Translations under genes and position numbers: made by a program | Assembly (NCBI GenBank): GCA_951406725.2 | Contig: OX597828.1 | Span: 1,426,001 to 1,490,000 of the forward strand | Direction: 5' to 3' | Length of the DNA: 64,000 nt | From: Octopus vulgaris | Taxonomy: Eukaryota | Shown: positions 6,189 through 62,064 of the stretch, piece by piece | Layout: every line of letters starts with the position of its first letter | Numbering within the stretch: the stretch's first letter is position 1 | Notes under the pieces: generated by a model | The model's input: only the letters and a program-made list of their open reading frames with translations | Databases searched by the model: none | Told to the model about the DNA's origin: nothing

Positions 6189-6375
6189 GAAGGTGTATGG
6201 CTCAGTGGTTAGAGCGTCGTGAGTTTCTGAGTTCGATTCTCGTTGTGTTCTTGAACAAGACACTTTATTTCACGTTGTTCCAGTTCACTCATCTGTAGAA
6301 ATGAATTGCGACGTCACTGGTGCCAAGATGTATCGGCCTTTGTATTTCCCTTCGATAATATCGGTGTCGTGGAAG
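6189..6375 (+). mobile_element. tRNA-derived SINE, diverged
   Basis: A-box-like tggctcagtggttagagc, B-box-like gagttcgattc, then ttgaacaagacacttt core. Confidence 0.7.
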
Positions 6376-6750
6376 AATCGTTACCGTGTGGGACAAAATG
6401 CTTACCAGTATTTCTTCCAACTTTGCGTTCTGAGTTCAAATGCCCACAAGGTTGATTTTGCTTTCATCCGTTCGGGATCTATAAAATAAGTACCAGTTGA
6501 GTACTGGGGTCGATGTAGTCGACTAATCTTCCCCACAAATTTCAGACCTTGAGTCTATAGTAGAAAGGAGAATTATTATTCCAGTATCGAGCTGGTAGAA
6601 TCGTTAGCACGGTGGATAAAATGCTTTGCAGCTTTTCTTCCGGCTGATTCCCTTCTGAATTCAAATTCCACCGAGGTCATCTTTGTCTTTCATCATTTTG
6701 CGATCGATAAAATAACTACCATTTCAGCATTGGAGTCGATAGAAAGAATT
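6376..6750 (+). mobile_element. Two tandem copies of a second tRNA-derived SINE family
   Basis: gaatcgttag..aaatgct..gttcaaat..gaggtc..ttt.ctttcat..gataaaataa.tacc..ggggtcgat body at ~6376-6580 and ~6588-6750; same family at 42762, 59644, 61869. Confidence 0.75.
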
Positions 6751-9683: not shown

Positions 9684-10976
9684 CGAGGGGCGTTCAATAA
9701 GTAATGCCCCTGACCCACTTCCCATAGCAGTAGAGCAACGAAACTTGGCACGGTTAGTAGTCTTTTTTTACATAGGAACCACACAGAGTTACGCATTTCT
9801 CCCATCGTTTGATGCAGTTCTGGAGACCGTTTTTGTAGAAGACCCCAGCTTAGTCCTCCAACCACGACTTGACTTCATAAATCAAGGCTGCATCATCTGG
9901 GAAACGCTTTCCTTTCAAAAACAACTTCATGGCTGAGAAGAGGTGAAAATCAGAGGGTGCAAGGTCAGGAGAGTAGGAGGGATGGGGGAGGAGTTCATAG
10001 CCGCACGCCTGTGCTTCTGATTTGGCGACACGCGAGTTGTGGACCGGAGCGTTGTCCTGCAGGAGGAGGATGCCTTTGCTGATCTTACCCTACCTCTTGA
10101 TTTTGATAACTTCTCTTAATTTCCTCAGAAGTGAAGCATAATAGGCTCCTGTAATTGTGGTACCCTTTGCCAGGAAATCTGTCATCACTACTCCATCCTG
10201 GTCCTAGAAGACTGTGAGTATGACCTTGCCAGCGGAGGGCTGCACCCTTGCCTTCTTTGGAGGAGGTGAGTCACGGTGCTTCCACTGCATTGACTGAGCT
10301 TTGGTCTCTGGATCATAGTGATGGACCCAGGTTTCATCCTGTGTAATCAGTCTTTTGAAAAATTTTGACTCATCTTCTTGGCACATCTCCAAATTCATCC
10401 TCGAGCACACGACGCGTTCTTGCTTCTGGAAAGGTGTGAGCAACCTGGAAATCCACCTGGCAGACACCTTTTGCATATGAAAATGGTCATGAATGATAGT
10501 TTCCACAGACCCGGTACTAATCTTGAGCTTATGGGCTATTTAGCGAATAGTTATGCGTCGATCTTCCAAAATGGCAGCCTCAACTTAACGGAGAGATGCC
10601 TCATCAATGGCAGAAGGGGGACGACCAGATCTGGGAGCTGTTTCCACAGAGTTCCGACCATGTTTGAATTCACGATGCCAGCGTTTTACAAGGTCATATG
10701 ATGGGGCTTCATCACCATAAGTTACTTTCATTTCATTAAATGTATCCCGTGGTGAGCGTCCTTTCAAATACAAAAACCGGATCACTGCTCGACACTCAAC
10801 AGGCTCCATATCACACTTGACTCAGTTCAAACACCTGTAAATCAGAAACCACGATTAATTCAGAGCTATAATTTACCACTTAATCTATAGAGATATAAAT
10901 AATTGCAGGTGCAAAATTTTAGCTAGATCAAACAACTGCAAGTGGATCAGGGACATTACTTATTGAACGTCCCTCG
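9684..10976 (-). mobile_element. Full-length (~1.29 kb) mariner transposon inserted in (TA)n
   Basis: TIRs cgaggggcgttcaataagtaatgcccctgacccactt and aagtggatcagggacattacttattgaacgtccctcg; TA TSD. Confidence 0.95.
9754..10809 (-). pseudogene. Mariner transposase pseudogene (HTH plus DD34D-type catalytic domain)
   Basis: MEPVECRAVIRFLYLKG..RSGRPP; KVSARWISRLL; ITQDETWVHHYDPETKAQSMQW; YSPDLAPSDFHLF; in-frame stops and frameshifts. Confidence 0.9.
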
Positions 10977-11039: not shown

Positions 11040-12033
11040 AGACCTCTCCGAGACAACCTCACTCGGGCTGAATTGATTGCCCTTCGCCACCTCCGTCGCC
11101 GCAATGACATTGTCATCAAACTGGCGGACAAAGGCAGAGCGGTGGTGGTGTGGCGCGCAGATCTATAGAGGGAGGAAGCGCTCAGCCAGCTTCAAAATCC
11201 CCTCTTCTATCGCCTCCTCCCCTCCGATCCCACCTCTTCCTACCAACAGCGAGTGTCCTCCACCATCCACGACCTCATCTCCTCTTCTGCTCTCCCCCCC
11301 ACCGCCACCAATCTCATCGTCCGCACACCCCGCACCTCCACCATCTATTTCCTTCCCAAAATTCATAAACCCAATAACCCTGGCCGCCCCATCGTTTCTG
11401 CCTGTAATTGCCCCACTGAACACCTTTCCCTGTACCTCGACCGCATCCTGTCCCCCTTAGTCGCAGCCCTCCCATCCCACATACATGACACCAACCACGC
11501 CCTCCGTCTCTTCATTTCCTTTTCCTTGCCTTCCAGCCCCTCACACCTCCTCTTCATCTTAGACATAAAATCCCTGTATACGGTAATTCCCCACAACGAC
11601 GGTCTCTTAGCCCTCCAACACTTCCTCGACCGTCGTCCCGACCTCACCCCCAGCACCCTCACCATTCTCCGCCTGGCAGAGCTCGTCCTCACCCTCAACT
11701 GTTTCACGTTCGCCGGGGAAACGTACCAACAGGTGTCTGGGGTCGCGATGGAAACGAGAATGGGCCCCAATTTCGCCAATCTATTTGTTGGCTACATTGA
11801 GGCCCAAGTATTCTCCCAATTCTCCGGGCCGACCCCAGAACTATACGGTCGCTACATAGACGACTGCATAGGCGCCACCTCCCTTTCCCGCGGACAACTC
11901 TGCCACTTCATCTCTTTCCTCTCTAACTTCCACCCCTCTCTACAATTCACTTCCACCATCTCCAATACCTCTGTCAACTTCCTTGATATCTCTCTCAGCA
12001 TCGACCACCCCTCCCACTCTCTCACCACCTCGA
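11040..12033 (+). mobile_element. Penelope-like element reverse transcriptase fragment, truncated at both ends
   Basis: DIVIKLADKGRAVVVW; YFLPKIHKPNNPGRPIVS; DIKSLYTVIPH; YQQVSGVAMETRMGPNFANLF; YGRYIDD; VNFLDI. Confidence 0.9.
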
Positions 12034-15010
12034 GATTGGATTAACAGCAATTGACAACTCAAAGCTGCCAGGTAAATATAAAATTTGGTGCTTACAGTTC
12101 GGCTTGTATCTGCGACTTTCGTGGCTACTTTTGATATATGATGTAGCACTATCACAAGTTCAAATCATTGAACAAAAATGTAATGTGGTCATTAGAAAGT
12201 GGCTAGGTCTACCTCGGATATTGAACAGTTCAACACTCTATCGTAAAAGAGGCTCATTGCAGTTGCCACTGGCGTCAATTAGTCGAAATTCATAAACTAG
12301 GGAACGTAGGAACGGTGATGAGGCTGAGAGAATAGAGAGACGTAGCAATCAGGCGTAATACACCAGATGTAAAAACGGTCAGGATGTGGAAAGTAGAAGC
12401 AGAGACCGATGACATTCTGTCTTCTCTTATACACCAAGATATGGTGGGTGCAATGCAATTTCATCGAAAGAGACTTGGTATTGCCGGTGGACTACATCTC
12501 GGCTAAGATGTAGTCCACCACCATATCTCATTCCAATCTATGATGTCTTGCCTTCGCCTATAAATCTAGTAAGATAGAACGTCTCAAAGGATGATGTATG
12601 CAAATGCGGAACGGTCGGAACACTGAAGCATATTCTTTCTAACTGTTCATTAGCATCGAACAGATATACATGGAGACACAACTTGGTTCTTAAGGTTATC
12701 TTCAATGCTATAAAGAACCAAACTACTCTCATCAACAGTGGAAAAAAAAAACCGATTGAAGAACCAACCAGAGATTTCATTACCTTCGTGTGCTCAGGAC
12801 AGCAGATCCGTTATAAGAACTAGAAGAAATTTCCTGTGAGCGACTATTGGCAGGTGGCTGCAGATTTATCAGGGTGCCAAGGATTCTTTCCCATCTCAGT
12901 TGCGAAAAACTCGGATATTATAATGTGATGTGAAAGAAAGTTGTGAATCTAGTCGATGATCTTTTTTATCAACCATAAAAGGTATTACATAGAGGGGACA
13001 CTACAACACATTGGGGACACAAAACATCAAAAAAAAATTATCGTATGATAAAATGAGAGAAAGGGTGATAATGAAAGATGAAAGTGATGTTAACTGCCCC
13101 ATCAGTCAACATCGCTTACTTGTCCTTTTTTTTTCCTATTTTACCTCGAAAATCATAAAGTCTACAAATTTAACCTCCTATATTTCTTTTAGTTTATTCC
13201 TCTTTCCCGGTGCCAATGTTCTTCTTATTAATGTATATTCATCCTCAAGTTCCTTTTCAAGTTCTTCAACCTGATTTTTTGACACTACTATAACCATTTT
13301 CTGATGCCAGCCATCTGGCATTTCTATCTTTCCCCATATTTTCAATCTTTCATATAAATATTCTTCAGGGTGGAGGCTTTGTGTTATCGCTTGTTTGTCT
13401 GTTTTCTGTTTTCTTGTTGGTGAGGAGTGGGTGGAATTGGTGTCTGCAGGAACGGGGAAGGACACAGTGGGTGAGGGTGGTGCTGGGGTGGATTGGGGTG
13501 CACAGTTACTTGCCTTTTTTCTTTTCCGCTGTTTCTTTTTCCCGGGGTTTCCCACTCTTTTCCGTCTTCGTTCACTTGACTCTCCTTTTCTTCTGTTTCC
13601 TTCTGTTCCTTCTGGGGTGCTACCGTTTCCACTGCTGTTTTCTTGGTTATCTGTTCCACTGTCGTATTACAGTTTGCTCTTATGTGGCCCTTCAGGCCAT
13701 ATTTATAACAACGAGGGGCTCTGCCCTCCACCCATACTTTCATCGTTATATCATTTGTCATAATCGACTCCGCCAAATTTTGTAGGGTTTCCATTTCTGC
13801 TTGGACGCTCATTTCCAGCGTCGCTCCTCTCTATCCTTTATCTTCTGTTATAGTCGCTTGGACAATGTCGACCTTATCTTCATTATCGCAAATAACCGCT
13901 GCTATTACTAATTCTGCCTTGATATCCGGTGGAATTCCCTCCACCCTAATTCTTGATGTCCTTCTCCCCAGATAAGTGGGTAGAAGTGTAAATTTTCCAT
14001 TTTTTATCGTCTTTGTGGCCATTCTTCTAGCAGTTTTCTCATTTATATACTGCACCACTACTGTGGCATACTTATTTCCTCTTGCGAGGAATACTATTTC
14101 TTCCTCTGTTGTTCTTAATGCCCCCTCTATCATTTCCATGTTTATTATGTATGTGCTGTTCTTGTCGTTTGCTAATACTCTGTATATTATTTTCTTTTTT
14201 TCCATTTTACTTTTTTTCCTGTTGGGCAACAACAACTCCACCTCTCCGTTCACTCTTTTTATCTTGTCCTGGCATTCCGGTAATTTTGCCAGATTTATTT
14301 CTTTTTTCACCTGCGTATGTCCTTTTCTGTAGTACCATGTCCATTCTTTCTACCGCCTCCACTAATTCTTCTTCGGAAGACGACATGTCTGACTCGCTGA
14401 ACATTCTTCTTGTTCTCTCCATTCTCAATGAGGAAAAACTAGCCGAATTAATGATTCCTTATGAAGACAACGTGGACGCCGCTCGGGCTCTAAAGATTGA
14501 CCGTTATATAAACCTCCTCGAGGAATGTGAAGACGCAGGCTGGAAAGCGGAGCATTTTCCAATCGAAGTCAGATGTAGATTTGTTGGACACAGTGTGAGG
14601 CGACAGTTGTTATCGTTAGGCTTAACTCATCGTAAAGTCAATACCACTATGAACGATATCCAAACTACAGTGGAGAAGGCTAGCCACTGGATTTAGTTAA
14701 AAAGAGACAATGAGCGATGGCTAGAGGAATATTGGGCTATATTTAATAACCAGTTGATCTAGCAAGCAGAGCCGCATATCAGTGAGGTGGGGCCGGTACT
14801 CAATGATACCGCCGAGAGGTAGGCTCCGAAATGTCGCGCATTCTCTCGTGATGACCCCATACATTTGCTGGCTTCCAGTATGTGGAGCTTTCGACTGGTA
14901 GCACTTGCATGAGCATATATATGAGAATATATATATGGTGGCTGCCCCCTCGTTATCGAGTATGGCCATTGCACGAAGCTTAATCAATGTTGTTATCGTG
15001 CAATGCCTGT
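12034..15010 (+). mobile_element. Hero-type (R2-like, RLE) non-LTR retrotransposon 3' part, interrupted at 12957-14438
   Basis: LPGKYKIWCLQFG; RKWLGLPR; YDVLPSPINL; CKCG..GTLKHILSNC..RYTWRHNLVL; RLE motif restored across the insertion as VVNLVELMIPYEDN..KIDRY..FPIEV..EKASHWI. Confidence 0.8.
12957..14438 (-). mobile_element. ORF1-only (gag-like, HAL1-like) non-autonomous retroposon, copy A
   Basis: Frameshifted ORF ~14404-13178 with LARGNKYATVVVQY, LLPTYLGRRTSRIRVEGIPPDI and zinc knuckle VEGRAPRCYKYGLKGHIRANC; no RT; 8-bp TSD ctagtcga/ctagccga; A-rich 3' end. Confidence 0.8.
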
Positions 15011-15029
15011 GCAAGAAGATTTTTTTAAA

Positions 15030-15458
15030 GTGAGGAAAGGCTGTGTCAATCCCACTCACTAAGCCATAATCCGAAAAGAAGAACAAGTCGACATCATCGG
15101 TAACCACTGAGCCGCAGGTTTTATGTCGGAGTTATCCCAGTTACCTGAGTTACCTTCTCCTTGAAGGATGCCCTAACAAAGGCTAGGAGTCCTTCACTCC
15201 CAATGGTTTAACCGCGCGATCGGGTATTCAGGCCGATTATTTCTATGTCCCCGCGCATGATACAGCCTTAAGACATTTATTGGATGGCCGTTGACTCTCA
15301 AGAGTTCCTCCGCCCTTTGATGGGTTTTGTTTTTCATCCCGCAGGGTGTCCAGTAAACACCCTCCTCACCAAGCAAGCTTGGTAGGGTTGCCGGTTTTGA
15401 CGCCGACGGCCCGACCATGCAACAGGTTGTACTGGGTTACATGTTACCAGTAGCACTC
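15030..15458 (-). mobile_element. Structured 5' UTR-like segment of an RTE-clade LINE
   Basis: Minus strand ggactcctagcctttgttagggcatccttcaaggagaaggtaactc resembles a motif I recall from RTE 5' UTRs; several hairpins; no ORF. Confidence 0.45.
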
Positions 15459-16020: not shown

Positions 16021-17319
16021 TTTGGAGACTTGTGTGCAGAATATAGAAAAAACGTGCCCAAAAGGACAGTTTTAGTCAACCGCCTATTTGTTTCTGATGG
16101 GTCGGGAGAGAAACATATATGTTGCCAGAGGTAGTTGGTATATCAGCTGAATTAAAGTACATAAGTTGTGTGGTGTAGGATGTGTTGTGTGATATGTGAA
16201 TGTATGTTGGGTGGTGGAAATGAAGTAGTAATTGGTTAACTAGATACATGCAAAAAGTTATAGTTTGATACAGTAGACAGTTATGGTTCGTTTTGATTTG
16301 AAGATGAGAAAGAAATGAAAAAAGCTTATAATATCTGGGTGTTGACCTGAAATAAATGAAAGGAAGGAGGCAAGTTGATAAATAGAGTTGAGAGTTGCAA
16401 CGATATGTTACCCATTAAATTTCTTGCGTGAGATTTCTTAGCATCATGTATAAGTCGCTTCCTTAAATTTTGTCAGTATGCCCTAGTAAATACAGCACAT
16501 ATTTAAATATGAGAAAGCTTTTAACTGTGAAAATAAGTTATAAACACATTTCTTTTATGCTTTCGATGTGCGAAAAAAGAAAAATAGACGTGAAGGAATC
16601 GCCTGATCGATGTAGTCACTCTCCTTCCCCAGTCGATAACTTTAGTCGGTAATTAAGTGATTACCGTGGTGGATGGCTAAACTTGCATATTTATACTCTA
16701 GGCGGTTCTTCTAATAAGCAATTATATTCTATGCATAGTACTGCGTAAATCTGGAGTATTGAAATGAATTTAGATGTGATAATAAACTATATAAATATGT
16801 AAACACATTCCTTCTACACCTTCAATGTGCGAGACTGCTGATTTACCGATTCATGATTTGCTAGTTGTTTCTCAGTGGTGACGTACACACTCTCCTTCTA
16901 ACGACAGATTAGAATGGTATCCAACTTCTGTATATAGTAGCCAGCAACTAAACTATTAATCGCCATACTTGCTTTAGACGGCTCGTTATGAAGTAAATTT
17001 ATGTATATTCTATGCATAACACAGCATAATTTAATAGGACCATACGCGATTTTTTCAAATGTCATTTTTATAACGGTAAATTCTGAAAATTTATTTCGGG
17101 GATGTAAGTGTAAATATTCCAAGAGATGCTGGCTTATGGCTGAGACCCAAATTGCAGGTAACCTTTCAACTTTCCCTGAAACGAAATGCCAAAAGGCAGC
17201 TGCGTTGAATGCTGTGGGTGGTAGTCGCAAACAATTGTCATGAAAACCGAAATGCACGAGGAGGTTATGGGTATAAAAATAATTTGAACCGCGTTCCTGG
17301 AATTCGTAATTTGGACATT

Positions 17320-18787
17320 CGCCTCCCTCACTTTTTTCGAGTTTGGTATTATTAATAAGGTTAGTTGCACGTGTTGTTGAGTCGTTAAACGTTGTTTTTG
17401 TTTGTTGAGATATTTCTGTTTATTGTTTGTCGCGGCCCGTTGTTCGATAAGTCAGTCGGCTTGCAACTCGGCACCTGGAGAGGCAAGTCGATACCTCCTA
17501 ACAACATCGTCGTGAGTTGGACGGAGGGCCTGGTTAAATTGCTAGGAGTCTGGTTAGGTCCGGACCTCCAGATAGAGAAGAATTGGAGCGAGGTGGCGAG
17601 CAGAGTGACCAACCTAACTCAGATCTGATCTGAGCGGTGGCTATCCCTGAAAGGGAGGGCGGAGGTCGCAAATATGTTTATCGCATTATCTACCGCCTGA
17701 CCGTCGTGCCTTGTCCCGATTCGTGGCTAAACAAAATGGAACGATTGCACTTCCGCTTTCTGTGGAAGGGCAGGAGTTCACTTGTAAGGCACTCTATCTG
17801 CTGCCAACAACTGTTAGGGATGCCGTGGCTAATGATGCGCAGATATGCGCTGAAGCTGAGGCATCTCTAGTTTTGGTGAATTGAAACCGTGGGTTAAGCG
17901 TAGACCAAAGTTGGGTGCGTGACTGGCCGAATGTCGGCAGGGACTCGTGCTTCTCTGCCGGACGGGTAATGCCGGTGGCGAGGGTTACACCTCGTCATTC
18001 TATAGAGGGCTTGTAGAGGCAAAGTGTGACGATGATCTGAGGGAAACCCTAGGCTTCAGCGAAGGTCAGCTTGCTGGTTTGTTCCGAAGGACATTCGGGC
18101 TAGGGACGTTGGACAACTTCCAATGTTACCGAGGAGTATTACCAGTTCGAGATAAACTCGCTAGGCATGGCTATTCATGCCAGTCCACTTGCCCAAGATG
18201 CGAGCAGTGGAGTGAAACTGTTCTGCACGCTATTGTGCAGTGTCCGAAAATTTCGGAAATGTGGGTCGAACGGCTGCTGTCACATTTGGGAAGAGTACAG
18301 TTGTCTTCCGAGTCCATTATAAAGATTGTTCCACCATCCTCCTTGAATAAGGAAGGCAAGGTTTGTTTTCGCGCAGTGGTAGTGATGGCGAAAGAGGTTG
18401 TTTGGAGGACACGTATGATGGGAGTGGCGACGGGTGCCTTAATCTCCGGCCCTGGTTTGCTCCGCTTGTTTATTTTCCATCTTAAAAGGAAACTAAGGCT
18501 GGAGAGGAAACGCTTGTCAGCCGATATATATGGCAAAAAAATGGAAGGAAGTGACGTGGATGTTGGGAGTGAATGAAGCCGCGTGAGTGTAAAAAATAAA
18601 GGAAACAAAAAGGTTCAGTGGTGGATCGGGGCTTGTGGGGTCGAACACGTCCCGCTCTCCATTGTGTTGTTTTTGTATTGTTCGTTCATTTGTTTATATA
18701 ATTCGTAATTTATCAACTGCTCATTTTTAATGTTTTATCATTCGATTCCCGACCCCTTTCATTTTGTATCGTCCTCTCTGTATTTAG
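17320..18787 (+). mobile_element. Tx1/L1-clade LINE: ORF2 C-terminus and 3' UTR, possibly joined to a 5' UTR by an internal deletion
   Basis: VKLLGVWLGPDLQIEKNW; WLSLKGRAEVAN; FRFLWKG; zf-RVT-like YRGVLPVRDKL..CPRC..ETVLHAIVQCP; T-rich 3' UTR. Confidence 0.85.
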
Positions 18788-18789
18788 TA

Positions 18790-19685
18790 TTCATGGCAGA
18801 AACAAAATCAATTCGTAATTTGGACGCATCACGTATGACTCGATTCTCAGAAGCGCAGAGAGAACAAGCTGTCGGCCGATTGCAAGCATGGCAGCGTGCT
18901 CTGGTTGTTGCGAAAGCGTACAATGTCCATGTCAACACCATCTATCGTCAGCAGCAGCGATACAACAACACCAACAGCACTGCAGACCGTGCCCGCAGTG
19001 GTCGCTCCCGAGTAACCACGCCCAGGGAGGACCGCTCCATCCACCTGCAACAGCCCCGTGATCGCTTCAGACCGGCCAGCGTGACAGCACGCGAGGCCAT
19101 TGGCACTGGACAGCGACCCATCAGCGACGACACGGTACGACGTCGACTGGCCGCCAACAACATGCGTTGCCGTCGTTCTACTCGGCGGCATGTTCTCACC
19201 CCTCGCCACCATGAGGAACGATCACAGTGCGCTACACAACACCGACATTGGTGATATCAACAGTGGAGATTGATAGTCTTCTCTGCTTTCAGCCCGGATT
19301 TGAACCAAATTGAACACATGTGGGATGAAATTTAGAGAAGCTGAACCAGGTGGTTCCAAAGCCGACAACTCGTGTGGAACTAGAGGCAGCTTTCCTCAGG
19401 GTTTGGGCACAGGTGCCAATGGCTTTTATGAACCGCCTCATGCACTCCTTGTACCAACAGTGTATGGCTGTTTTGAACACCGAGGGAGGGCATAAACGGT
19501 ATTGAACATTTCACGCCTACAATTTCGATGTGCTGGATCCGCCCACTACCAGAACACATGACAACGACACAAAGTGCATCCAAGAAATTGACTTTTTCAG
19601 ATTTATCAAAATTTATCTTTGACATAATGAAATTAAAACATATTTCACTGTCACACACGTCTCGCATTTCTTTTGCGGTTCAGTG
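18790..19685 (+). mobile_element. Internally deleted Tc1-like transposon (HTH retained, most of DDE domain lost, right TIR only)
   Basis: MTRFSEAQREQAVGRL..DRARSGRSRVTTPREDR..ISDDTVRRRL; SPDLNQIEHMWDE; ends ttttgcggttcagtg followed by TA. Confidence 0.85.
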
Positions 19686-35378: not shown

Positions 35379-38300
35379 TGTGGGAGAGTCCTGACCACCT
35401 CCACGTGACCAAAAGTGGACCGACGCATTTCAATAAAATAAAATAACTGTGTGAACTGTAGGCAGTTGACAGTCTCCGTTTTTCTGTTCCGTTTCATCAT
35501 TTTTGATCGCTGTTAGACGTGAGTAACATTGTTTATTATTTGTTGAAGGTCTCCCCTCGTGGGTGTACCTACGATTGTTGATTGTTGAAATTGCTGGTTT
35601 TTTACATACGAGTTTGTTGATTTGTGTTTTTGTTCCCATTTAGGGGAGAACCTGAGAAGAGAAGAAAAATGGAAATTGAACCAGCAGAAGGCCACAGTTA
35701 TGCGGCAGCAACTGGCAGAGGAGTGGACTCGGATGCTTTGGAGGTTCGGAGGTTCGCGAAGTAAAAGTAGAACCGAAGAAGCTAAAAGAGTGCGTAAAGT
35801 TACTGGAAAACGAAGGCTATAACCTAAAATTAACGCCACCAGGTGAACTAACAAAGAGTGTAAGAAAGAGAACAGTGATATACAAAACATTGAAAGTGTC
35901 ATCCCGAAAAATTGAAATCGAAATTATCGAAGCCATTGAAGAGTGCCTAAAAGAAGTCAAAAAGTTCATGTTCATCACAAGAGGAAGAAAGTATGGCACA
36001 GTGGAGGTGTGATTCGTGACGGAAGACTCCACTGTAGCCATAAAGACGGAAGAGTGGGTACTTTTGCCAACATACTGTGGCAAGCTTGTTGCCAGGATGA
36101 GAGTAGGAAAATTGCCATCGGAAATAAACGAAACATGGTTGGTTGCAGCGATAATGTTCAATATGGAAGAAGACGCAAAACTACTGAGAGTGACGGGAAC
36201 TTTTAGTTGAATCAATAGGGTTATGGCATAGAGATGGCCATACAAGCAAGTTTAAGTGACCTAAACAAAATTGGAGAGGAAATAATTTTACCCGCGGATG
36301 TGAGGCTGAGAGTGCTACCTATGTGGAGAGAAAGGCTATATGAAGGCGAGGTGTCCCCAGAAAGAAAAGGAGGAACAACAGATGAAACAGTCTGAGGAGA
36401 GGGTGGACGAAGTGGTACCGGATGATGTGAAAGAGACGGCAATAACAGAGGAAGCATTCACAGTAGTTAAAAAAACGAAAAAGAAAAAAAAGAGTAATCT
36501 CTCCGTCGGAGAGGCAGAAAAAGAAGAAAGAAGTAGATAAGGAAGTTGTGAAGGCAGTTGAGAAGGAGGTTGAGAAGGTGGTTGAGAAGGAGCTTGAGGA
36601 GTAGCTCGAGGAGGAGCTTGAGAAAGGGGAGACAGTAGCAAGGAGAGGAGGAGGAGACAGTAGCAAGTGGAGGAGGTAGATTTAGGCGGTGTAGAAAGAC
36701 AACAGCATGAAGGTGAAACAGCGACACTAACGAGAAAGGAGGAGGATAAAGACAGAGAGAAGGCGCCAAGAGTGGAGCAAAGAAAAAAACAAACAAGCGA
36801 GAAAGCCGAAGATGCATAAGTGGAATTTCGTGACATACGCTAAGAGTACAACAACTAAAAGAAAGCTAACGAAGTTTAAATTCATAATAAGGGTTAAGTT
36901 GCCTACAGAGATTTACTCGGAAAATGTGAAGGCTATTGTAATTGATAAAGATAACAGGTTAAAGGAAATGTTTGGAAGGGATATTGATCCACTAGAAGTT
37001 TTGGTGGAGTCTGACGAACTGCCGCCAGTTAAGAGAACTGGAACCATTTATGAGATATTAAAAAAAGTAAGTAAAATTGTTTTTTAAAAAAAAAGAGAGG
37101 ACAAAAATGATGTTAATGGAAACAAAGCAAAGGACAGGAAAAGATCATAAACTGTGCGTAAAAACATTCAGATGGTACTGTATAAGAGTGAGGCTCATGC
37201 AGCCATTTCATTTTTTCATTATTATTTAACATTTTTCTTATTTTCATTCTTTTTGTGTTTTTTGTCCCCACTGTGGCTTTCTGTCTGTCCTTGTGCTGTC
37301 CCCGCTGTGTAAAAGCTTGAGTGCTTAAATAAAGAAAATAGTCGACAGTCAGTAGTTGACAGAGTGGATCGTTTATATTGGATTACTGTGTTAGTTTAAG
37401 ATCGTACTTAGGTTTGGCGTAGTACGGAGTACATTCTGCGTGAACATATTAATTCTGCAAAAGGTTATTCTAGATAACCATATCTAATATTTATTTGGGT
37501 AATATTATTCCTACACCAATCTACACTCCAACGTCATCATAACATTATTGGCGGCGAGGATATTCGAACCCAGACTGGATAGATTGTTGGTTGGAACATG
37601 GAAGAATTACTGGCTTCAGTAATTGAGTTACAGAAACAGCAGCTACAACAGCAACAACAGTAACAACAGTAACAATAGCAGTTGGTGGAATTGCAAAAGC
37701 AACGGCAACTGTTAATACAACTGCAACTCAATAAAACAGAAAATATATCGAATTCGTTCACTCCTGATATGGTCACAAACTCCATCGGTGATTTCACATA
37801 TAACCCGGATGAGGGTATTACCTTTCCTGCATACTACAGAATGTACGAGGAAACTTTTAAAGATGAGTGCTTGGATTGGCAAGATTAGGCAAAAACCTGA
37901 CTTGAGGTTGAGAAATTTGACCCCAGCCAAACACGAAAAATACTGCAACTCTATATTATTGAAGAGACCGGGGAAGTCTGTTTTAAAGAATCTGTTGAAA
38001 CCCTTTCAAAGATTTTCAGCGAGAAAAGCTCTTTATTTAATACGCGCTGGTAATGCATGAAAAAAAAGAGGACGATTTTATTACATACGGTAGAATCGTT
38101 AAGAGGGAATGTAGGAAATTTAAAATTAACGAACTAACACCAGACATGTTTAAATGTTTTGTTTTTTGTTCAGGAAAGACGCAGAAATTCGTAACCGAAT
38201 TCTGACTAAATTAGAACAGAACAAAAGCTAACATTATAAGAAATATCTGAGGAATGCCAGAGAAAAATAAACCTAAGGCACGATACGGAACAAATTGAAG

Positions 38301-42761: not shown

Positions 42762-42987
42762 TTTATTTCTTTATTGCCCACAGGGGGCTAAACATAGAGA
42801 GGACAAATAAGGACAAAGAGATTAAGTCGATTACATCGACCTCATTGCGTACTTATTTTGTCGACCCCGAAAAGATGAAAGGCAAAGTCGACCTCGGTGG
42901 AATTTAAACTCAGAACGTAAAGACAGACGAAATATTGCTAAGCATTTCACCCGGCGTGCTAACGTTTCTGCCAACACGCCGCCTTAT
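42762..42987 (-). mobile_element. Full-length tRNA-derived SINE with Tx1/L1-like 3' tail
   Basis: Head ggcggcgtgttggcagaaacgttagcacgccgg; 15-bp TSD ataaaactttatata at 42747-42761 and 42988-43002; tail tgtcctctctatgtttagccccctgtgggcaataaag. Confidence 0.9.
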
Positions 42988-50470: not shown

Positions 50471-51835
50471 TGTGTGTGTATGTATGTATATATGCATGTA
50501 TGAAAGTATGTAATTTTGGTATGATTGCGTATGTTTGTTTTTATGACACTGTACTTGTGATGCATACATACACATTATTATTCAAGCAGGATTTCAATTT
50601 ATACATACATATGTCTACCCACGCATATTTGCGCGCGCGCCCATACACGTTTTGTGAATGTATGAGTAGGTCTCTGTATGAAAGTGAAAGAAACGTGTCA
50701 CGTGTCTTTGAGTGTCTGTGTGCTTGTATGTATGTATGTATGTATGTATGTATGTATGTATGTATGTGTGTGCATGTGTGTGTATGTGTGTGTGCCTGCG
50801 TGTGCATTTAGACACATAAGTAATTTTTTGAGTTCATATAAGCATATATAAAATTTACTGTGCTTATGTAGAAACTTATTTACCTCCACACACACGCACA
50901 CGGTATAAACACACACACGTACACATATGCAAAAGCTACCGTATTGCAAATATACAGACCAATTCAATCAGAGCTAACCTAAGCTAAGCAATAGCAACAT
51001 TCAGACACACATACCCTTTCAACAGAAATGGCCAGCTCTGGTTAAATTTAGTAACCTGTGATATCGAAAGCCAAGTAATACAACTGAATACTTGTTCTAT
51101 TTTACCTTTCTTTAATTCTACGTAATTTCAATTTTTTTCCTACCAGAACTGTCCCATTCATTCACAAACAGTACGAACGAATGAATGACAGATGGGGGAT
51201 TAAAAAGTTCTGTCAACACTTTAGCTATCTTTTCATTTTGACTTGAATGCATGTGTCCCTATTTTAAGTACGTTTCACACAACTAGAATCCATAGAAAAA
51301 AAACACATATCCGGGATATTCTACATAAATATGAGTACGCACACGCACGCTTCGATACACACAAATACATATTCACATAGACAGCTATATAGGTCAATAA
51401 AAGATAATTTTGTTGTATATTTATTTACACCGTACAAGTTTTGTTACATGTACGACATGAAATTAATTCACCGAATTTTGAGTTGTTTCTGAAGATACAT
51501 AGAACTTGGGGAAAATTTTATGCTCAGATAGACTGCACATTTACTCTTCGTGTGTTTTCATAAATAGGGATACGATGATGACTTTTCGTTGTTATTTTAT
51601 GGATTATTTCGGCGATTGCTTCATTGCCAACTTAGTGTAGTTTTGTTCATATATCTATGATTTCGTCTCGTAAATGAATAACCTTTCTCAGAGTGGTACT
51701 CTGATAAAAGCTTCTGTTTCCACACTGGAATCGGTATATTTTAAAGGTGACACACAATTATATGTCTGGTAAGTGTTTGATATTTTAGCGATAGTGTATG
51801 CAAAAAAACTTCAGGGAAGCGCAAAAAAATCAAAA

Positions 51836-54800
51836 TGTGGTATTCGTGGAGAGAATTGCAGATGAGGTAAACGGAAGTGAAGACTGGAGGGGCCGGCGGA
51901 AGAGCCACGGGGGCATGCGTGGGCAGAAACCACGTGAGGCAGTTCGATGAGAGACAGCGAGTGTGGAAGGACATGTTTTTTTCTTGACGGCGATCGCTCA
52001 TTCCGCCTCGGTCAACAGGTAAGGTCTCTATTTCTTTCTCACTTTTACTTCTTTTTCTGTTGTCTTTTTCCTCCATCACTCAACAAGCTATTTCGGCCAA
52101 TAACAAAAAAAAAACAAAAAAACAAAAAAACAAAAACGATTGATGAGTGTTGTCCGTATTTCGAACGATATGGTCAAGCCGTTTTGTGGTGACACGGATA
52201 TAGTCACTTGGTTGAAGATGAAGTTGGTTGCGAACTCCACAGGATAAACGACTTAGCGAGTTTTATATCGCTGTACCTAGATGGTTCGGCGTTAGCGCTA
52301 TACCTAGAAATGGAAGAAAGGGACCAACTTAGCGCGGAAAAAATAGAAATCCGTTTGATGAGGGCCTTTGCCGAAGGAATGTTCGAAGCGTACGCTCGCC
52401 TGGGGAAAGCAAAGTGGACCGGCGAACAGGTCGACGTATTTGCCAACGAACTCAGGACATTGGCTAAACTGGCGGGATATGAAGGTGAATCACTGGACCG
52501 AACGGTTAAGTTAGCGTTTGTGACTGGCTTACGTGACCACATGTCGATCGAGTTGCAAAAGCTGCCGAACGTTAACTCTATGGCGATGGCAGACATTATA
52601 TCTTGGGCTCGCGTGCTAGTTTCGTGTTGCGGGATGACGCCGGTAGCAGCGACTGCAACAACGAAAAGTGGCCGAGCAAAGAGAGGGGTCAAACAAGGAA
52701 CGTGTGCGACCATTCAAAGGACAGTGTTTCCGGTGTCAGGGCTCACACATGGTACGAGACTGCAAGTCACCCAAATCTGAGATCATTTGCTACTGGTGTC
52801 GAGAAACAGGATATATAGCCAGCGAATGTCTGCGGGGAAACAGTCTGAGACTATTACACTGGTAGTTATCCCTTCGGATCAATAGAGGCGCGTTTATCGT
52901 TACCTGTAGTCGACATTCTGGTGGAGGGGAAGATGTCGCGAGCCCTTGTGAACACGGGCTGTACGACAACCTCGATGACTCCAGAAGTGGTAGAGACGTG
53001 GAGTGGAGTGAGCAATGTAAAGGCAGTTGACGGAAGAGAGGTACACTATGAAGGCGTTACAGACGCGCAGATTGTGGTGCAGGGAACAAAGCTGACGCTG
53101 CAAGCAATTGTAGTTGGCCACTTAGTGGACGAGACTGACGTGGTGATGGGGATGGATGCAATCTCCCGTTTGTGAGGTGTCACTGTCAACGAGGCCGGTG
53201 TAACGTTCGGGTTGCGGAGAAACCGTGTATGGCGAGGCCGTGCATTGGTGAGAACCGCGAAGAAAACTATGCTGCACACACCATTGAAGACCAGGACTTT
53301 CGGGCTGTCTTCGATGGCCAGAGATGGACAGTGGAGTGGCACAGGAAGGGAGAGCCCCCGACGTTAAAAAATAAAGTGGGCTGTTATAAGCGTACTCTGA
53401 AAGGAGATGCCAGAAGTGAGTTCGAGGGGGAGGCGGAGCGGTGGATTAAGGAGGGTATATTGATCCCTTGGGAAGAAGTAGAGAGCGGAGTCCTGGCGTT
53501 GATAGCAGTGATACAGCCCACAAAGCATAAGGTCAGGCCAGTGCTTGACTTCCGAGAGCTGAATAACCACGTATCATGTCATTACAGGCGACGAGGCCAC
53601 AGATGTCTGCGGAGACACCTTGCGAGGGTGGAGGAAGATGACAGGGGCATCCACGATCGTCGACTTGAAGTCGGCATACCTGCAGGCGCATGTGACTGAG
53701 AAACTGTGGAAGTATCAGCTTGTCAGGTATAAGGACCGGACATACTGACTGACCAGGCTGGGCTAAATTCAGCGCCAAAGATTATGGCAACAATTATCAA
53801 GGCCATCCTGGGAAAGGTGGACAGAGTAAAAAGGGCCACCAAGTCGTATATCGATGACATCCTGGTGGATGAAACCGTAATGCCAGCAACGGAGGTCATA
53901 GGCCACCTGAAGAGTTTTGGACTGATCGCCAAGCCACCAGAGGCAATGGAGGGAGGCGCTGCACTGGGTCTCAAGCTATGGAGAGACAAGGCTGGCGCGT
54001 TGATGTTCCGGCAAGGGAACGAGATACCCGAACTGGGCACCAGCATGAGTAGACGGGAATTGTTCTCGGTATGTGGGAAGCTGGTGGGACCACTACCCGA
54101 TTGCAGAATGGCTACGGACAGCATGTAGCTTTATCAAGAGACGAGCCGAAGGAGCGATGTGGAACGATAAAGGTGGGAAGAAGACGATACAGGAAGTCTT
54201 GGTCAGAGTGAGAGCAGAGGATCCAGTAAGAAGTTGGTGTATTCCCAAATCAAAGAGCGGGATCGTATGGTGTGACGCGAGTGGCATCGCAATATGTGTT
54301 GTTTTGGAAGTGGGAGGCGTCGTGGTGGAAGATGCAGCCTGGCTCAGGAAGACGGATGACTGCAACCATATCAATGTGGCGGAGTTGGATGTTGTACTGA
54401 AGGGAGTGGACCAAACCTTGAAGTGGGGGCTGCGCACCATAGAAATTAGGACCGATTCGGCCACTGTACTTGGTTGAGTGACGGCAGTCATCACCAATGA
54501 GCGGAGGGTGCGAACCAAAGGGGCCGCAGAGATGTTGGTAAAGCGTCGATTGGGGATACTGCGTGAACTAGCCGCTGAGTTCGACATGAAGCTGAGCATG
54601 ATCTTTGTGCCTTCCAAGAAGAACAGGGCAGACGTCCTGACCAAGGTAAAGCGAGCCTGGTTGCAGGTGCCAGAGGACGCGGAACAGGCTGTGGCTGCAG
54701 TATTCCGTCTGAGTAACTTGGAGTTGAGGAGATTGCATACCATGCATCACATGGGGGTGGACAGGATGTTGTTCCTAGCCAGAAAAGTTGACTCCGATGT

Positions 54801-56015
54801 AACAAGACGGAGCGTGCAGAGAGTGGTTAGCAGCTGTGACAGGTGCCAGTCCATCGACCCTGCTCCAGGCGTACATGAGGTGAGTATTATTCCAGTGGGT
54901 CACAACTGGAAACGACTGGCAGTGGACATAACACACTACCGGCAGGGGACATACCTCTCAATGGTTGACTGCGGACCGGGGCGGTTGGCCATATGGAGGG
55001 AGATGAAGACGTGAGAGTACTAAATGAGATATTCCTGGAACGAGGCCCTGTGGATGAGCTGCTTCTGGATAATGGCACTGTATTTCGCTCGGAGGTGCTG
55101 AAAGAAATGCTTGATGGGTGGCAGGTCAGCCGCTTCTTTAGGGCTGCCAAGTGGGAATGAGGTGGTGGAAAGGCATCATCGTACCATCAAGACTATGGCA
55201 GAGAGGGTCCACATTCCACCAATCGAGGCCGTATTTTGGTACAATATGTCGCCCAGATCAGGACAGGCTGAGGAGTCGGTGTCACACAGCAGAATATTCA
55301 GGTACGAGTGGAGGCATCCGTGTACTGCATCAATGCAATCCGGGGCAGAGGAAGAGCATGCCTTCGTGCAGGTCGGGAAGAAGTTTGGGTAAAACCCCCA
55401 TACGCACAGTGCACATCACGATGGGGAAAGGGAACAATAACCTTCATCAATTCGAAGAACAACATTTCTGTCGATGGTATGCCACGCCACGTTTTGGATA
55501 TACGGAAGATTGTCAATGCCTCTGAGGATGGAACCAGTAGCAGTGGGCAAGAAGATGAAGACAGCAGTAGTAGGCAAGATGATGAAGCAGCATGCCAGGA
55601 ACTCAGGCCAGTCCTAGGGTCGCACGGCGACCACAGAGGGAGCGGCACCCTCCTCTCTGGTTGGCTGATTATGAAACCAGTTAAAGTGTGAATTCGGGAG
55701 GGAGGAGTGAGTGGGAAAGCCTGTAGATCAGCGGGGGCGTGTGGTGCTTGTGGTGTTAAGGGCTGTGATGAGTTATGTGGTGTTCGTAGAGAGGATTGCA
55801 GATGAGGTAAACGGAAGTGAAAACTACAGGGGCCGGCGGAAGAGCCACGGGGGCATGCGTGGGCAGAAAGCACGTGGGGCAGTTCAATGAGAGACAGCGA
55901 GTGTGTCTTTTTCCTGACAGTGATCGCTCACTCATCCCTCCTCGGTCAACAGGTAAGGTCTCTGTATTTCTTTCTCCCTTTTGCTTCTTTTCTGTTGTCT
56001 TTTTCCTCCATCACA
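51836..56015 (+). mobile_element. Gypsy LTR retrotransposon 2, compact and decayed; LTRs ~51836-52085 and ~55776-56015
   Basis: LTRs share gcagatgaggtaaacggaagtgaa..ggggccggcggaagagccacgggggcatgcgtgggcagaaa; gag CFRCQGSHMVRDC, CYWCRETGYIASEC; protease ALVNTGC; RT VRPVLDFRELN, DLKSAYLQ, YIDDILV; RNase H WCDAS, HINVAELD; integrase HTMHHMG..CDRC, LAVDITH, LLDNG. Confidence 0.92.
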
Positions 56016-56027
56016 CACACTCACACG

Positions 56028-59643: not shown

Positions 59644-59857
59644 TAGTTTCAGTTTTTTTTGCACAAGGCCAGAAATTTCGAGGGTGGACGTAAATCGATT
59701 ATATCAAACACAGTACTCAACTGGTACTTACTTTATCAAGCCCGAAAAGGATGAAAGACAAAGTCGACCTCGGTGAACTTTGAACTCAACGTAAAGATGG
59801 ACGAAATGCCGCTAAGCATTTTTCCCAGCGTGCTAACAAATCTGCCAGCTTGCCGCC
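59644..59857 (-). mobile_element. tRNA-derived SINE, family of 42762 with a different tail
   Basis: cccgaaaaggatgaaagacaaagtcgacctcgg..gaaatgccgctaagcattt..gctaac...ctgccagcttgccgcc. Confidence 0.85.
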
Positions 59858-59995
59858 ATCTTCATTTTTAATATGAAAATTTTGTGAATCATCGCATATT
59901 ATATTTCACTCTGAAGTTTTCTTCCTTTAATCATGGCGATCGGTACAGCATAAAACATAACTAGCTTACCAGCACTTAATATTCGTCAACATATT

Positions 59996-61868: not shown

Positions 61869-62064
61869 CAAAGGCAAGCTGGCAGAAACGTTAGCACGCC
61901 GGGCAAAATGCTTAGCGGCATTTCGTCCGTTTTACGTTCTAAGTTCAAATTCTGCCGAGGTTGACTTTGTCTTTCAACCTTTCTGGGTCGATAAAAATAA
62001 GTGCACAGGGATCGATGTAATAGAATTACTTCCCTTACACGAAATTGTGCCAAAATTTGAAACC
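61869..62064 (+). mobile_element. tRNA-derived SINE, family of 42762 with a different tail
   Basis: ggcaagctggcagaaacgttagcacgccgggcaaaatgcttagcgg; 11-bp TSD aatattaatga at 61858 and 62065. Confidence 0.88.

Follow-up and report, generated by a model that had tools for sequence, protein, structure and literature searches.

What kind of long interspersed nuclear element (LINE) carries an ORF1-type gene and nothing else, and how would such an element be copied? The question is raised by a 64,000-nt stretch of the Octopus vulgaris genome (assembly GCA_951406725.2, contig OX597828.1, positions 1,426,001 to 1,490,000), referred to here as the window, in which a 1482-nt insert, element A (12957..14438, minus strand), interrupts the endonuclease frame of another LINE. 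We consider it probable that element A is a dead 1.5- to 1.9-kb octopod ORF1-only element, likely copied to this site by the ORF2 of an autonomous LINE of the Tx1/L1 type. An initial annotation of this DNA had proposed an ORF1-only, non-autonomous family in connection with HAL1 elements. The family remains the best reading, given the layout and 3′ motif found in two divergent elements, the diverged copies in sequencing runs, and the predicted ORF1 fold, though the element is not a HAL1.

Boundaries of the insertion

Element A lies within a LINE of the type that encodes a restriction-like endonuclease (RLE). The host part before the insert (12030..12956, plus strand; left limit approximate) holds a linker, a CCHC knuckle, an RHN segment, and the start of the endonuclease, and the part after the insert (14447..14730, plus strand; right limit approximate) holds the rest of the endonuclease. 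Once element A and one copy of the flanking repeat are taken out, the host frame is rejoined and gives the peptide quoted in the initial annotation. Of 24 listed sequencing runs, four were compared with the window, and three of these (X1, X2, and X7) are DNA runs, with two species labels among them. In X7, a contig of a paralogous host copy passes from 12956 to 14456 across 9 letters, as many as expected (14447-14455), and this uninserted copy carries the same letters as 12949-12956 ahead of the joint. The 1.48-kb insert proposed for the host endonuclease frame is confirmed in that its removal restores the frame and in that the paralog lacks exactly the 1482 nt. Each DNA run has one listed contig that extends across the right junction of element A (14277-14594 in X1, 14277-14579 in X2, and 14277-14533 in X7), and these contigs differ from the window by 10, 5, and 1 letters, respectively. 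Because contigs of three DNA runs cross the right junction and the empty site of the paralog is present in X7, the insertion is not an assembly artefact.

The insert is flanked by a target-site duplication, with CTAGTCGA at the 3′ end of element A (12949..12956, plus strand) and CTAGCCGA at its 5′ end (14439..14446, plus strand). The duplication reported earlier is present and has the reported length of 8 bp, but it is not perfect, with one mismatch (7/8 bases alike). A search near the two junctions for exact repeats of 6-14 nt gave none. Random 8-mer pairs of the window reach a 7/8 match in 0.1% of cases, and its position was fixed independently. Neither a long terminal repeat (LTR) nor a terminal inverted repeat was found in element A. 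Two other classes of element were ruled out: a DNA transposon, to which an 8-bp duplication could point as in hAT, by the lack of a terminal inverted repeat, and the gag gene of an LTR element by the lack of an LTR and by the RRM fold described below.

A decayed ORF1-type gene and its protein family

Element A contains a single decayed open reading frame (ORF) that is spread over three frames (13178..14422, minus strand), with 16 nt of the element before the first ATG, at 14422, and with the stop codon at 13178-13180. Because only these 16 nt precede the ATG, compared with a 194-nt leader in a second element of the window, element B, element A is probably 5′ truncated. The ORF is damaged by a frameshift near 14310, a stop codon at 13831-13833, and a frameshift between 13627 and 13513, and it is ~9 codons short, in the last domain, relative to its closest relative, P0001. 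Its parts, all on the minus strand, are two predicted RRM domains (13730..14190; approximate limits, mapped from the model of the relative P0040), a single zinc knuckle (13669..13710), a linker that is charged and then Pro/Thr rich (13400..13665; approximate limits, in a low-confidence region of the family model), and a C-terminal domain whose start aligns with P0001 (13181..13390). The knuckle is degenerate, C-x2-Y-x4-H-x4-C, with Tyr in place of the second Cys of the CCHC present in relatives, and it was not detected by a Pfam search. Relative to the gag-like layout given by the initial annotation, the frame is broken and the knuckle is not intact. The internal stop at 13832 is missing from 8, 5, and 7 other contigs counted there in the sequencing runs and is therefore private to element A. 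Judging by its two frameshifts, its internal stop, and its broken knuckle, element A is a dead copy without present mobility of its own, and the earlier description of an independently mobile element does not apply to this copy.

A word-index search over 486 candidates returned two relatives of the element A protein, Octopus sinensis LOC118767527 (57%) and O. bimaculoides A0A0L8G4Z0 (39%). With A0A0L8G4Z0 as the query, 258 clusters at 50% identity were obtained, and at least 117 clusters, among the 150 of the 258 that were listed, match ≥40 profile positions of the pre-knuckle (RRM) part. Of 30 family clusters looked up, 15 have an organism name, and these names are those of octopods throughout (14 Octopus and 1 Argonauta hians). 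The median pairwise identity is 26% among 56 family rows, a value that includes decay in dead copies. In a midpoint-rooted tree of the 56 rows that were long enough, in which 21 of the 53 inner branches are unresolved, element A pairs with P0001 as its sister (100/99); both belong to a group of 33 rows (92/93), and element B falls outside it.

The relative P0040, which is full length, was modeled with AlphaFold from 44 sequences (mean pLDDT 72.9), and two α/β domains are predicted with confidence. Tandem RRMs were the best Foldseek matches of this model, four of them at an E value of ≤0.001 (IMP3 RRM12, 3e-4). The nearest named ESM Atlas clusters offer a lead only: the N-terminal 250 residues of P0040 came close to RBD1, RBD2, and the knuckle of ZCCHC3 (PF23057/PF23058; score 0.90, 161 shared features), and DUF4283 of plant L1 elements lies near P0040 by structure, below the naming bar. 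The Pfam search gave no match to PF23057/PF23058 or DUF4283, and none to Transposase_22 turned up, in element A or the 150 listed relatives. The combination of RRM and CCHC is described as type I LINE ORF1, known from Tx1 and plant L1 elements, and the ORF1 of mammalian L1 as type II, with a coiled coil, one RRM, and a C-terminal domain (PMC5203782). From these models, the family protein is predicted to be an RNA-binding type I LINE ORF1 with two RRMs and one CCHC knuckle. The type fits a Tx1 derivative, though it is not exclusive to Tx1.

Could element A instead be a processed copy of a host gene, or of a domesticated ORF1-derived gene, for an RNA-binding protein? The family is too diverse to suit such an origin comfortably: it comprises 258 clusters at 50% identity, and the median pairwise identity over the 56 rows is 26%. 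None of its members stands out as the one conserved orthologue, and the element lacks poly(A). Annotated genes at unrelated loci also contain pieces of the family in their models (Helitron P0055, RGS P0068, and SNF2 helicase P0095), which argues against a host gene as well. Features that such a copy would share are the lack of introns, the target duplication, the AATAAA-like signal near the end, and a fold resembling that of the host protein ZCCHC3. On balance we regard a host gene as a most improbable source. As a separate observation, misleading names (EPM2A-interacting-like and ABC transporter F-like) occur on family proteins among P0055, P0068, P0095, P0009, and P0021.

The initial annotation had suggested a structural check of the extra C-terminal domain, and the check was run on the B-type domain, a conserved domain of ~85 residues that ends about ten relatives as well as element B. 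The model is poor (mean pLDDT 59.8; order β-α-β-β-α-β) and gave no Foldseek match at an E value of ≤0.001. The best Z score of the model, 6.5, was to ferredoxin-like folds, a range of common arrangements, and in the ESM Atlas all matches of the domain were under 0.9. As modeled, the B-type domain might possibly be a third, degenerate RRM-like domain. A search of 599 candidates (285-2000 aa) with the C-terminal part of element A gave no relative, and on present sequences the B-type fold should not be transferred to element A.

Searches for what accompanies the family protein elsewhere gave little. No longer or fused forms were found among 6123 candidates of 1092-3115 aa, which is weak evidence. 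No endonuclease or reverse transcriptase (RT) families were found among the 150 listed relatives (for four unrelated multi-knuckle proteins, among the best five families), a result that does not bear on ORF2, which would be a separate frame. Family proteins lie on 1.1- to 2.2-kb contigs in 15 of 16 Logan/ENA records, which we do not count since such contigs are short anyway. Pattern matches to family loci, 268 in metagenome contigs and 92 in viral contigs, yielded none that was confirmed, and the tail pattern had no match in the metagenome contigs.

Element B, the common 3′ end, and the candidate partner LINE

The second family member of the window, element B (35475..37339, plus strand; 1865 nt), has 29% amino acid identity to element A. 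The 194-nt leader is followed by a decayed ORF that has the plan of element A and ends near 37087 and by an ~250-nt 3′ untranslated region (UTR), and the element is flanked by an 11-bp duplication in which 10 of 11 bases are alike (35464-35474 and 37340-37350). No DNA similarity between the two elements was detected by blastn; the name "copy A" used in the initial annotation is not borne out, as the window holds no second copy of element A at the DNA level and the second element is a distant relative. The family profile found no third member in the window, and both members encode an ORF1-type protein without an endonuclease or RT. The target of element B is itself repetitive: AGTTGACAG, from the 35464-35474 region, recurs at 37354, 14 nt past the right copy of the duplication.

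No ORF2-like frame was found 3′ of the stop codon of element A. The stop is followed by a 3′ UTR of 221 nt (12957..13177, minus strand) that is made up of an A-rich block, a T-rich block, and a terminal motif common to element B, with two TGTCCCC units, TGTAA, and ATAAAAAA. When the tails of A and B were aligned, the two TGTCCCC units, TGTAA, and an ATAAA end were shared, with a score of 57 that was reached in 0/2000 shuffles, and the element B UTR was the best non-self match to the element A UTR among 1274 window tiles (100.8). The order described earlier, an ORF leading into a 3′ UTR and an A-rich end, is thus retained for the UTR and the missing ORF2; the end itself, in both A and B, is only a short A-rich one and not poly(A). 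Other features of the UTR were also considered. A possible ORF2 remnant in the element A UTR aligned at a level reached in 8/2000 shuffles, and the same stretch also aligned to the UTR of a LINE at 17317-18809. An Rfam search of element A gave three matches, all far under the gathering score, and no family. A conserved tail hairpin was rejected (z of −2.3 in A and 0.1 in B).

The family of element A is multi-copy. Other copies, 7-17% diverged over 210-290 nt, cover parts of the element A ORF in contigs of X1 and X2. No RNA run is listed as holding the element; X10, for which RNA is a guessed label, contains two near-identical pieces of element A at depths of 3-7. In X1, the depths sum to 64-107 close to the 5′ end of element A and to 1605 over its last 100 nt, with single clean contigs at ~22-28; across the stop codon, it is 338, 250, and 408 in bins 13310-13410, 13209-13309, and 13108-13208.

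These copies could also belong to ordinary autonomous elements. The protein family would then be the usual ORF1 of octopus Tx1/L1 LINEs, and A and B would be separate short derivatives, made by internal deletion or by skipping ORF2 in the course of copying, that formed no lasting lineages. Protein collections are blind to what follows ORF1, and the 117 clusters could be the ORF1s of many LINE families; a common tail is equally expected of autonomous relatives, and an internally deleted Tx1/L1-type copy is present in the window (17317-18809). Yet both window members, with no third found by the family profile, lack any ORF2, both pass from the stop codon straight into UTRs of similar build, and both have an extra C-terminal domain. 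The X1 depth also shows no drop across the element A stop, though separate parts of a full LINE would give the same. Weighing these points, we find it unlikely that the proteins are simply those of autonomous LINEs.

If the family is ORF1-only, a partner must supply ORF2, and a candidate relative of that partner is the internally deleted L1/Tx1-type LINE at 17317..18809 (plus strand). This LINE has a leader-like start, a late ORF2 with zf-RVT (E value, 3.7e-7), a 3′ UTR, and an exact 16-bp duplication (17301-17316 and 18810-18825), and it lacks an RT of its own. Its UTR is the second-best non-self tile for the element A UTR among the 1274 tiles (67.5, versus 56.3 for the next unrelated tile; 0/1000 shuffles), and the short tails of the two elements align with a score of 30.5 (1/2000 shuffles). 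Partner short interspersed nuclear elements (SINEs) and LINEs are described as usually sharing tails, and many Tx1 families as preferring particular targets (PMC4494074); an expansion of L1-Tx1 elements is reported for coleoids (PMC8967140). Going by the tails, the partner of the element A family is likely a Tx1/L1-type LINE.

A partner of another type (RTE, L2/CR1, Dong, or Hero), with a 3′ end that the family acquired or mimics, would leave the family ORF1-only and make its likeness to a Tx1 tail due to chance or old. The evidence for such a partner includes a SINE-like repeat at 42762-42987 (minus strand; 15-bp duplication) with a tail like the A/B motif. This tail is as close to that of element B (4/2000 shuffles) and is the top non-self match of the A+B tail profile (E value, 0.28), ahead of the LINE at 17317-18809; in addition, PMC9115989 reports transcription of full-length LINEs in octopus for RTE elements only. 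The ORF1 type, which fits L1/Tx1, argues the other way, as does the whole element A UTR, which ranks the zf-RVT LINE over every unrelated tile, and we consider a non-Tx1/L1 partner quite improbable. Repeats related to the SINE-like one were seen near 6360-6730, 59660-59860, and 61870-62030.

The target sites add a further comparison. TCG, with a frequency of 0.8% per position, occurs within the first 6 nt past the 3′ ends of A, B, and the LINE at 17317-18809 and not past that of the SINE-like repeat, a post hoc observation with n = 3. A target preference common to A, B, and this LINE is possible. TCGAC was also noted in the target duplications of both A and B (12949-12956 and 37340-37350). The LINE at 17317-18809 has its insertion site immediately upstream of the frame of a Tc1/mariner-type transposase (18709-19254); Tx1-Mar elements are described as preferring a Mariner target (PMC4494074).

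In the proposed mechanism, by which element A would have been copied through the ORF2 of a Tx1/L1-type LINE, the source copy would be transcribed from its own leader and the ORF1 protein would coat its own RNA. The partner ORF2 would recognize the conserved 3′ end, nick the target, and reverse transcribe from that end, and such target-primed copying would leave duplications of 8-16 bp and many 5′-truncated copies. The family may have originated when a Tx1/L1-type LINE lost its ORF2, with diversification following; element A would have landed antisense in the older RLE-type LINE and decayed later. It has been suggested that such ORF1 proteins multimerize with the proteins of the partner (PMC5786205) and that HAL1 requires both ORF1 in cis and ORF2 in trans (PMC3627910).

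Several observations weigh against this reading. Only two full elements were seen, and the B-type profile did not detect the last 70 residues of element A. Element A ends in GATAAAAAAGATCA, a short A-rich end without a poly(A) tail. The tail comparisons are uneven: element B and the short tail of the LINE at 17317-18809 are not significantly similar (115/2000 shuffles), the A+B tail profile reaches this LINE only at an E value of 9.4 (rank 7), and with the LINE tail as the query, element A is the tied fifth-best non-self tile. The 5′ ends of element B and this LINE have no significant similarity (329/2000 shuffles). Several gap settings were tried for the tail alignments, and the shuffles ignore A-rich and T-rich patchiness. 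The summed depth along element A is not monotonic, with peaks at 13411-13511 and 13613-13814, near the linker and knuckle, and does not represent a copy number. No listed contig of another copy spans the junction of ORF stop and UTR, and the listing covers 24 of 2089 loose-end rows; because this junction is unspanned in the listed contigs, relatives bearing an ORF2 may exist.

Relation to known ORF1-only elements and surrounding repeats

ORF1-only, or bipartite non-autonomous, LINEs have been described from Jockey (HeT-A), L1 (HAL1), and CR1 (Ag-Sponge) (PMC5786205). The octopod element resembles HAL1, which is non-autonomous, has only ORF1, depends on ORF2 in trans, and long kept its coding capacity (PMC5753468 and PMC3627910); several origins of HAL1 are described in mammals (PMC5753468). 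HAL1 derives from mammalian L1 and has a type II ORF1, whereas the octopod family has two RRMs, a knuckle, a linker, another C-terminal domain, and no poly(A). Because the ORF1 type differs (two RRMs and a knuckle versus type II), the octopod element is not a HAL1. The comparison made initially is apt for how the element would work but not for what it is, its ORF1 being of type I and the Transposase_22 type not being found. We infer an origin independent of HAL1.

HeT-A is telomere specific; elements A and B lie in unrelated dispersed sites, and the parent clades of HeT-A (Jockey, Drosophila) and Ag-Sponge (CR1, Anopheles) are other ones. Common to all of them is the state of a non-autonomous LINE with ORF1 present (PMC5786205). 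Tx1-clade elements resemble the octopod element in an ORF1 with RRM and CCHC, and the zf-RVT LINE of the window has a weakly similar 3′ UTR; the difference is that the octopod element has no ORF2, so its clade is not assignable by RT.

The literature searched gave no report of an ORF1-only family from cephalopods or of Tx1 origin, and term searches within PMC9115989, PMC8967140, and PMC10294476 likewise gave none; Repbase, Dfam, and supplements lay outside the search. This kind of element is already known from HAL1, HeT-A, and Ag-Sponge. New here are the octopod hosts, the type I ORF1, the unusual diversity, and the added C-terminal domain. Taken by itself, element A is a defunct insertion within repeat DNA that is likewise dead. 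If the family is what it appears to be, it would bring the short published list of parent lineages for ORF1-only LINE parasites to four (the new one of the Tx1/L1 type, with a two-RRM knuckle ORF1) and would be, as far as searched, the first in cephalopods. RT-based LINE surveys are blind to such elements; Octopus gene annotations already include their ORFs as uncharacterized or misnamed proteins. A family of this diversity would be well suited to asking what a parasite gains from an ORF1 of its own and what role the added C-terminal domain has.

A bolder version, which we put forward tentatively and doubt more than we believe, is an ancient octopod radiation of ORF1-only elements: >100 lineages <50% identical to one another in Octopus and Argonauta, with a Tx1-type origin, the gain of a third, ferredoxin/RRM-like domain at the C terminus that aids ORF2 capture, and an inherited TCG preference. 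Such a radiation would constitute a larger and older family of protein-coding LINE parasites than any that we found described.

The host LINE is itself decayed, with stops and frameshifts, and in translation the insert is seen to split its endonuclease motif. Its layout is that of a single-ORF LINE with a CCHC knuckle followed by a restriction-like endonuclease, as described for such LINEs (PMC5678591). Pfam and PDB searches with the host pieces gave no match. By its motif, the host may belong to the Hero clade, with NeSL, R4/Dong, and Utopia as the alternatives. Among molluscs, R2-Hero elements are reported to be almost restricted to cephalopods and abundant there (PMC10294476). The downstream host part (14447-14730) is high-copy in the sequencing runs compared. 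Just past it, 14926-15300 is a very high-copy repeat, with a summed depth of up to 7.9 million in X7 and, in X10, a contig of 536 nt that reaches a depth of 1055.

Other repeats of the window were noted in passing. Abutting the host LINE, a GC-rich open frame of 291 codons (11169-12044, plus strand) has a weak RT match (E value, 0.12) and is presumably Penelope-like. Decayed transposase frames at 9850-10830 (minus strand) are, by motif, presumably of the mariner type. A GC-rich block resembling an LTR retrotransposon, with gag-, RT-, and integrase-like frames, occupies ~51800-56000 and is bordered by direct repeats (51835-52082 and 55775-56017) that are 86% alike.

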